A model generated the notes under the pieces. That model searched no databases. It was not told the DNA's origin and saw nothing but the letters and a program-made list of their open reading frames with translations. Below, one piece after another: positions 58,282 through 60,188 of a stretch of 64,000 nt of DNA. Within the stretch, counting starts at the first letter, position 1. Every line of letters starts with the position of its first letter. The position numbers and the translations under genes are program-made. This stretch comes from Escherichia coli (GTDB lineage: Bacteria > Pseudomonadota > Gammaproteobacteria > Enterobacterales > Enterobacteriaceae), in assembly GCF_003334355.1 (NCBI RefSeq), contig NZ_QOWP01000015.1. One strand, given 5' to 3'.

Positions 58282-58545
58282 TCAGGCGCGGATTTGTTGT
58301 GATGTGGTTGTGCTCTGGCAGATGGCAACGTGTGCGACGTCCACCAGTTTATTTAACTGACTAAACAGTAAGTCGACCGACCGTGGGCTGGCAACGGTCA
58401 ATTCGATATTTATATTTTGTGCATCGCTGGCGGCGGCCATATTCATTGAGCAGACGTGGAAACCACGATGACGCACCACGCGTAAAACACGTTCTAAGGT
58501 TTCTGGATTGAAGCGAGCCGATACATTGACCTGATGTTGCATCAT
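58282..58545 (-). CDS. ilvM: acetolactate synthase II small subunit
   Basis: 87-aa [32 protein letters not shown]. Confidence 0.9.
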
Positions 58546-60188
58546 GATAATTTCTCCAACATTTCTGAATTACTGGCACCTGGCGGCACCAGCGGCCAGA
58601 CGTTCTCAAGTTCGTCGATTGAGACATGAAGCAGGTATGGCCCATCACTGTTCAGCATGGTGTTGAGTGCCGCTTCAACCTGGTCTTTACGGGTGATGTG
58701 TTGGCCAGGGATGCCGAAGGCGCTGGCTAACATGAGGAAATCGGGGTTATCAGTAAGGGTGGTTTCGCTGTATCGTTCCTGAAAAAACAGTTGCTGCCAT
58801 TGTCGAACCATCCCTAACCGTTGGTTATCGAGTAAGACGATTTTCAACGGTAACTGCTTGCGTTTTACGGTGCCCAGCTCTTGCACATTCATCATGAAAG
58901 AGCCGTCACCGGAGATACAGACAACGGTATCGTTCGGTCGCGCGACTTGTGCGCCAACCGCCGCCGGTAAACCAAAACCCATGGTACCTAAGCCGCTGGA
59001 GGTGATGAAATTTTCCGGGCGAGTGTGGGCGATGTGCTGCGCAGCCCACATCTGGTGCTGCCCCACATCTGTGGTCACGACGCAATCCGCAGGTTTACGA
59101 TCCGACAGTTGTTTTAACAACAACGGCGCGTAGATAGCGTCACCGGGATGGTCGTAACGCCAGGTATGTTCATCACGCAGCTGCGCGCAGTATTGCTGCC
59201 AGTCATTGATATTTAACGGCTGCTGTAATGCTGGTAACAGAGCATTTAAATCACCTTGTAATGCCACATGTGTCTGACGCAGCTTGTTCATTTCTGCCGG
59301 GTCGATATCCATATGGATAACACTGGCGTGTGGTGCGAAGGTGTTCAGTTTGCCGGTCACCCGGTCATCAAAACGTGCACCCACGGCGATCAGCAAGTCG
59401 CACTCCTGCACCGCGAAGTTCGCCGCTTTGGTGCCATGCATTCCCAGCATGCCCAGATAGTACGGATAATCTGCTTCAACTGCGCCCAGCCCTTTCAGCG
59501 TGCAGGTGGCAGGCATTTTTGTGGTAGCGAGAAATTCTCGTAAAGCAGGAACTGCCTGCGCCATACCCACGCCACCACCAACGTACAGCATCGGTTTTTG
59601 CGCTTTTGCCAGCATCTGGCGCGCTTGCTCAACTTCGGCATGTGGGAAAGTCACTTCGTTTTCAACGGTGGTGAACCACGGTTCCAGGTCACCGCTGGCT
59701 AGCTGGATATCTTTTGGGATATCGACCAGAACCGGACCAGGACGACCTGAGCTGGCAACGTCGAATGCTTCAGCCATAATGCGCGGCAACTCTTCCAGCG
59801 ACTGCACCAGAAAGCTGTGCTTGGTACAGGCTAACGACAATCCCAGGACATCCACTTCCTGAAATGCGTCCGTGCCGATAAACGGTGCGGACACTTGACC
59901 GGTGATGGCAACAACAGGGATAGAATCTAACAGTGCGTCCGCAAGCCCGGTTATCAGGTTGGTTGCGCCCGGACCAGACGTGGCGATACATACGCCAGTT
60001 TTGCCGGTAGCACGGGCATAACCGATAGCCGCCATTGCCGCACCCTGCTCATGTCGGCACAGCAAGTGCTCCACGCCGCCGTCATACAATGCATCGTAAA
60101 CCGGCATAATTGCGCCACCCGGATAACCGAAAACGGTGTTCACACCCTGTGCCCGCAACGCATGTACCACCCACTGTGCGCCATTCAT
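58542..60188 (-). CDS. ilvG: acetolactate synthase II large subunit (intact reading frame)
   Basis: Uninterrupted 548-codon ORF with ThDP-enzyme motifs; 4-nt overlap with ilvM. Confidence 0.9.

Follow-up and report, generated by a model that had tools for sequence, protein, structure and literature searches.

The window, that is, the whole stretch of 64,000 nucleotides from Escherichia coli that was analysed, carries the ilvLXGMEDA operon. The genes ilvL, ilvX, ilvE, ilvD and ilvA are found in it in the order known from K-12, and the gene for IlvM lies directly downstream of ilvG. The features from ilvE to ilvL, together with the site within ilvG at which K-12 differs in length, are the following.

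57333-58262, minus strand: ilvE, which follows ilvM in the operon; its annotated start is an internal ATG (MTTKKADY...), as in the genome of E. coli PSS-12 (locus L006, 7333-8262).
58282-58545, minus strand: ilvM, 87 aa (MMQHQVNV...), the small subunit of acetohydroxyacid synthase (AHAS) II; NCBIfam equivalog NF008362, 133.9 bits against a cutoff of 68.
58542-60188, minus strand: ilvG, the catalytic (large) subunit of AHAS II; one ORF from ATG to TGA, 548 codons and 548 aa, 1647 nt.
59209-59212, minus strand: ATAT, nt 977-980 of ilvG, in codons Asn326-Ile327; one AT only in K-12, by alignment.
60191-60241, minus strand: ilvX, a 16-codon peptide gene read from the sequence and annotated at the same position in PSS-12 and K-12.
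60272-60307, minus strand: terminator of the attenuator, located between the genes ilvL and ilvX; it consists of a G+C-rich hairpin with eight consecutive U after it.
60328-60426, minus strand: ilvL, a 32-aa leader rich in Ile, Val and Leu, MTALLRVISLVVISVVVIIIPPCGAALGRGKA; NCBIfam equivalog NF007744, 81.9 bits against a cutoff of 59.

The original prediction described ilvG as an intact frame of 548 codons, and the list of open reading frames shows exactly this, one ORF of 548 aa that begins with ATG. The encoded protein matches the NCBIfam equivalog model NF006524 ('acetolactate synthase 2 catalytic subunit') with 1072.7 bits against a cutoff of 738, and its residues 1-547 correspond to positions 1-547 of the 548 in the profile, so that the match runs from end to end. 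A frame of this length with such an equivalog score is far beyond chance. The Pfam domains PF02776 (TPP_enzyme_N, residues 1-115), PF00205 (TPP_enzyme_M, 186-321) and PF02775 (TPP_enzyme_C, 374-522) are all found, and all three ThDP domains, namely the N-terminal Pyr, the central and the C-terminal PP domain, cover their models end to end. Glu47, Phe109, Met250, Arg276, Val375 and Trp464 are taken here to be the catalytic and specificity residues of AHAS II defined in the E. coli mutagenesis literature. IlvG of the window carries all six at these positions (E47, F109, M250, R276, V375 and W464).

The neighbouring elements of the operon are equally complete. The overlap of 4 nt between ilvG and ilvM claimed at the outset can be read directly from the window: the plus strand at 58542-58545 is tcat, giving ATGA on the coding strand, in which the ATG of ilvM shares the 4 nt with the TGA of ilvG. 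On the other side of the gene, only 2 nt separate the stop codon of the upstream ilvX from the ATG of ilvG. The attenuator RNA folds with -21.6 kcal/mol (z = -4.07), a value equalled by none of 200 shuffled sequences. A consensus terminator scan did not pick up the ilv attenuator, because its stem contains one internal mismatch; it was recovered by folding. It lies inside a match to the Rfam family RF02744 at 60208-60497 (minus strand; 157.1 bits, gathering score 88). This family bears the name 'Rev39_5p_UTR' and was named from soft-rot Enterobacteriaceae; it evidently corresponds to the ilvGMEDA 5' leader.

The frameshift of ilvG in K-12 and its consequences are already known and have been textbook knowledge since 1981; the lesion is traced to Lawther et al. 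1981 as cited in PMC8605374. In MG1655, ilvG (b4488; 3,950,560-3,952,204) has a pseudogene annotation and a length of 1645 nt, 2 nt less than the 1647 nt of the gene in the window. In a global alignment, the two sequences differ by 30 substitutions and one gap of 2 nt, which falls in the K-12 sequence. A pairwise alignment of this kind had been proposed for locating the K-12 frameshift, and it places the missing AT pair at window positions 59209-59212, these 4 nt being the finest resolution that the repeated ATAT permits. Across the site the window reads TTA AAT ATC AAT GAC (Leu325-Asn-Ile-Asn-Asp), whereas K-12 reads TTA AAT CAA TGA; the window thus does not match the K-12 allele at codons 325-328. 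Because one AT is lost in K-12, a TGA arises there at codon 328, and the K-12 protein ends after 327 aa, shortly after the central domain, and does not reach the C-terminal ThDP-binding domain. The earlier statement that ilvG of K-12 is frameshifted is borne out in this way, and a frame-disrupting indel, which was sought in ilvG of the window, is absent, since the sole gap of the K-12 alignment sits in K-12.

The position of the lesion agrees with published revertants. In evolved lines of MG1655, the premature TGA had lost either its T (nt 982) or its G (nt 983), which restored the frame and made the cells valine-resistant (PMC8605374). The frameshift of K-12 has, moreover, been reported to have a polar effect on ilvEDA (Parekh and Hatfield 1997, as cited in PMC8605374). 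The MG1655 pseudogene and the gene of the window are alike in that they occupy the orthologous locus within the same ilvLXGMEDA operon, with ilvX, ilvL and ilvM in both, and share 98.2% identity (30 of 1645 positions substituted). They are unlike in that K-12 is without one AT and without the C-terminal ThDP-binding domain, while the allele of the window is complete. After in silico insertion of the two bases into K-12 ilvG, 7 residue differences and 23 synonymous codon differences from the window remain, a pattern that fits the expectation under purifying selection.

The distribution of the two alleles was assessed by a junction census, in which an 80-nt query centred on the K-12 ilvG junction was compared by megablast with 5,426 complete E. 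coli genomes. The exact K-12 junction was present in 340 of them, and the five exact-junction genomes that were sampled all belong to laboratory strains derived from K-12 (ER1709, two MG1655 records, JM83 and DCM188-6). A further 4,580 of the 5,426 genomes matched the query without being of K-12 type, and the span was 82 nt, i.e., with two extra bases, in all sampled rows. The remaining 506 gave no megablast match, for which an exact word of 28 nt is required, and the 4,580 genomes without the K-12 junction are consequently a lower bound. A longer query of 2.3 kb, from ilvL to ilvM, gave the same picture in the sampled rows, with a span of 2301 nt in all non-K-12 genomes and of 2299 nt in the K-12 ones. 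The strains W, B and Crooks have also been described as having an intact ilvG (PMC3032704). Since at least 4,580 of the 5,426 genomes are without the K-12 junction, and each sampled non-K-12 genome has the two extra bases, an intact ilvG is, judged from these genomes, the norm of the species, and neither the ilvG frame nor the aslA deletion described below is distinctive.

The deletion in aslA had been named as a further difference from K-12. It is confirmed by blastn, K-12 positions 3,984,290-3,985,868 (1,579 bp) being absent from the window; this segment covers the greater part of aslA and the beginning of the aslA-aslB spacer. What is left of the gene is the following.

26310-26449, plus strand: 5' remnant of aslA (138 nt) and deletion junction, delimited by blastn against K-12.

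In PSS-12, the annotation treats this remnant as an incomplete pseudogene. The junction of the deletion is contiguous in 1,727 of the 5,426 complete E. coli genomes, and for this reason the deletion is to be regarded as an old and common allele and not as a strain signature. Immediately within the left boundary of the deleted segment, K-12 has what looks like a REP-type palindromic element. A further indel relative to K-12, of 9 columns, occurs at window positions 26538-26550.

The relation of the source strain to K-12 is decided at the level of the whole window, which was compared by blastn with K-12 3,944,000-4,016,000. Two collinear blocks in reverse orientation were obtained, which together extend over K-12 3,946,748-4,012,311. 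The first joins window 64000-26450 to K-12 3,946,748-3,984,289 with 99.11% identity, and the second joins window 26448-1 to K-12 3,985,869-4,012,311 with 99.25% identity. The collinearity upholds the earlier claim that the gene order is the same as in K-12. In total, the window differs from K-12 by 512 substitutions, 20 indel columns and the 1,579-bp deletion over 64 kb, and hence lacks the near-identity to MG1655, with a handful of substrain differences, that marks the K-12 lineage. The density of SNPs relative to K-12 is mosaic: the 8 kb at 14-22 kb contain only 2, the segment at 52-56 kb contains 3, and the one at 32-36 kb is also near zero, while peaks of 51-53 SNPs per 2 kb (2.5% or more) occur at 48-50 kb and 56-58 kb. 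Such a pattern indicates recombination tracts on a partly K-12-like backbone, as is usual for E. coli. A gene for a PemK-MazF-like toxin, yifN, at 50286-50734 (plus strand) is a pseudogene in K-12 and a frameshifted pseudogene at the equivalent position in PSS-12.

The complete genome nearest to the window is that of E. coli PSS-12 (NZ_AP027697.1), from human faeces collected in Puyo, Ecuador. By blastn, the two differ over 64 kb by 15 SNPs and one 24-bp indel, which corresponds to 99.97% identity; the other best genome matches to the window are environmental, animal or clinical isolates. The ilvG gene of PSS-12 (WP_113074066.1, 'acetolactate synthase 2 catalytic subunit') is likewise an intact CDS at the same locus, with the same length and operon context, and differs from that of the window by 2 nt and 1 aa. 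These are a synonymous change at Val269 and a change at residue 306, where the window has Thr (ACA, window position 59273) and PSS-12 has Ala (GCA). Alanine, again as GCA, is also found in K-12, so that Thr306 is private to the window. In hemX there is an in-frame polymorphism in repeat number of the CACCTG type (24371-24398), at which the sequence of PSS-12 is 24 bp longer than that of the window; this is the 24-bp indel between the two. In K-12, the segment corresponding to 24387-24398 is 6 nt shorter than in the window.

In the original prediction, the intact ilvG was itself the ground for concluding that the window is not from K-12. The conclusion stands, given the 512 substitutions and PSS-12 as the nearest genome, while the argument from the frame does not suffice. 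Spontaneous revertants and engineered ilvG+ strains of K-12 exist, and an intact ilvG frame is therefore not decisive against K-12 ancestry. A K-12-lineage source with a repaired ilvG, either a spontaneous valine-resistant revertant or an engineered ilvG+ strain, has real precedents in the single-base deletions within the premature TGA of evolved MG1655 (PMC8605374) and in the oligo-mediated repair of ilvG in a K-12 platform strain (bioRxiv 10.1101/410001). Revertants carrying such a 1-nt deletion would, however, encode 547 aa, whereas ilvG of the window encodes 548, and K-12 does not have the aslA deletion. A repaired K-12 source is effectively refuted by the 30 substitutions in ilvG and the 512 in 64 kb relative to MG1655, which are far above the differences between K-12 substrains, and it retains almost no probability. 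The nucleotide divergence is the decisive evidence for a non-K-12 origin, and better evidence than the ilvG frame. A hybrid source, in which transduction or conjugation brought the region from a different E. coli into a K-12 backbone, would account for the K-12-like tracts of the window, of which that at 14-22 kb has 2 SNPs and that at 52-56 kb has 3. Natural E. coli are, however, usually mosaic in this manner, and divergent tracts occur across all 64 kb. In addition, the genome nearest to the whole window is the Ecuadorian faecal isolate, at 99.97%, and the other best matches come from the environment, animals or the clinic, which makes a hybrid source very improbable.

A different objection concerns the enzyme rather than the strain: the ilvG frame may be intact and the enzyme nevertheless inactive or altered, through a missense change such as Thr306 or through a regulatory defect. 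This reading starts from the 7 amino acids by which the protein differs from frame-restored K-12, of which one is peculiar to the window. Six of the seven are, however, common to PSS-12, the full-length equivalog score of IlvG is far over the cutoff, the expected catalytic and specificity residues are all there, and the ilv leader and the attenuator are intact. Residue 306 is placed between the central and the C-terminal domains. For further comparison, the PDB was searched with the IlvG sequence; the search returned no near-identical chain of E. coli AHAS II. The large subunit of AHAS I, IlvB, pairs with IlvN, not with IlvM. It was the best match of the search (6LPI) and is alike in belonging to the same family with the same three-domain fold (aligned residues 2-544, E = 1.6e-162), but it is a paralogue and not an orthologue of IlvG; isozyme I is, furthermore, valine-sensitive (PMC8605374). 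Residue 306 aligns with Pro in AHAS I, and because of this difference it is considered a variable position, not one conserved between AHAS I and II. An inactive or altered enzyme is accordingly a very unlikely reading. By the same sequence comparison, there is only a very slight chance that the private Thr306 changes the properties of AHAS II, and its being neutral is far more likely.

The best explanation, with a probability of roughly 96%, is that ilvG of the window is the wild-type, ancestral allele in a natural non-K-12 E. coli closely related to the faecal isolate PSS-12, with a presumably functional AHAS II. The comparisons confirm it as the ordinary wild-type form of a well-studied gene, here in a natural isolate of E. 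coli, and as such it is already known. In the proposed scheme, ilvG and ilvM would be translated from the attenuator-controlled ilvLXGMEDA transcript, and the ATGA overlap would couple the initiation of ilvM to the termination of ilvG. IlvG and IlvM would then form acetohydroxyacid synthase II, a thiamine-diphosphate enzyme. AHAS II joins pyruvate to pyruvate or to 2-ketobutyrate in the first common step of the synthesis of valine, leucine and isoleucine. It is not inhibited by valine, whereas the isozymes I and III are (PMC8605374). The inhibition of these two isozymes means that added valine starves K-12 of isoleucine. Since AHAS II is insensitive to valine, a strain with the allele of the window should grow on minimal medium with valine. 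AHAS II activity, valine resistance and freedom from polarity on ilvEDA are expected for this allele from established knowledge, and the source strain is predicted to have all three AHAS isozymes and to be valine-resistant. The significance of ilvG of the window is one of provenance only, as it points to a natural E. coli close to PSS-12 and not to the K-12 reference.

Two records met in the genome comparisons have ilvG regions of their own kind. The record of THB42-F3 (NZ_CP104330.1) carries the host label 'dog', has the K-12 ilvG junction, and its ilvG is annotated as frameshifted. The record also describes the strain as a transconjugant, and the chromosome is therefore that of a laboratory K-12 recipient; the case illustrates that allele censuses may be led astray by the host entries of genome collections. 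In NCCP12480 (NZ_CP068680.1), a non-K-12 strain, the match is limited to the first 55% of the ilvL-ilvM query, and its ilvG, which adjoins ilvA, bears the generic annotation 'thiamine pyrophosphate-binding protein'. This arrangement suggests an independent deletion that would span from within ilvG to ilvA.
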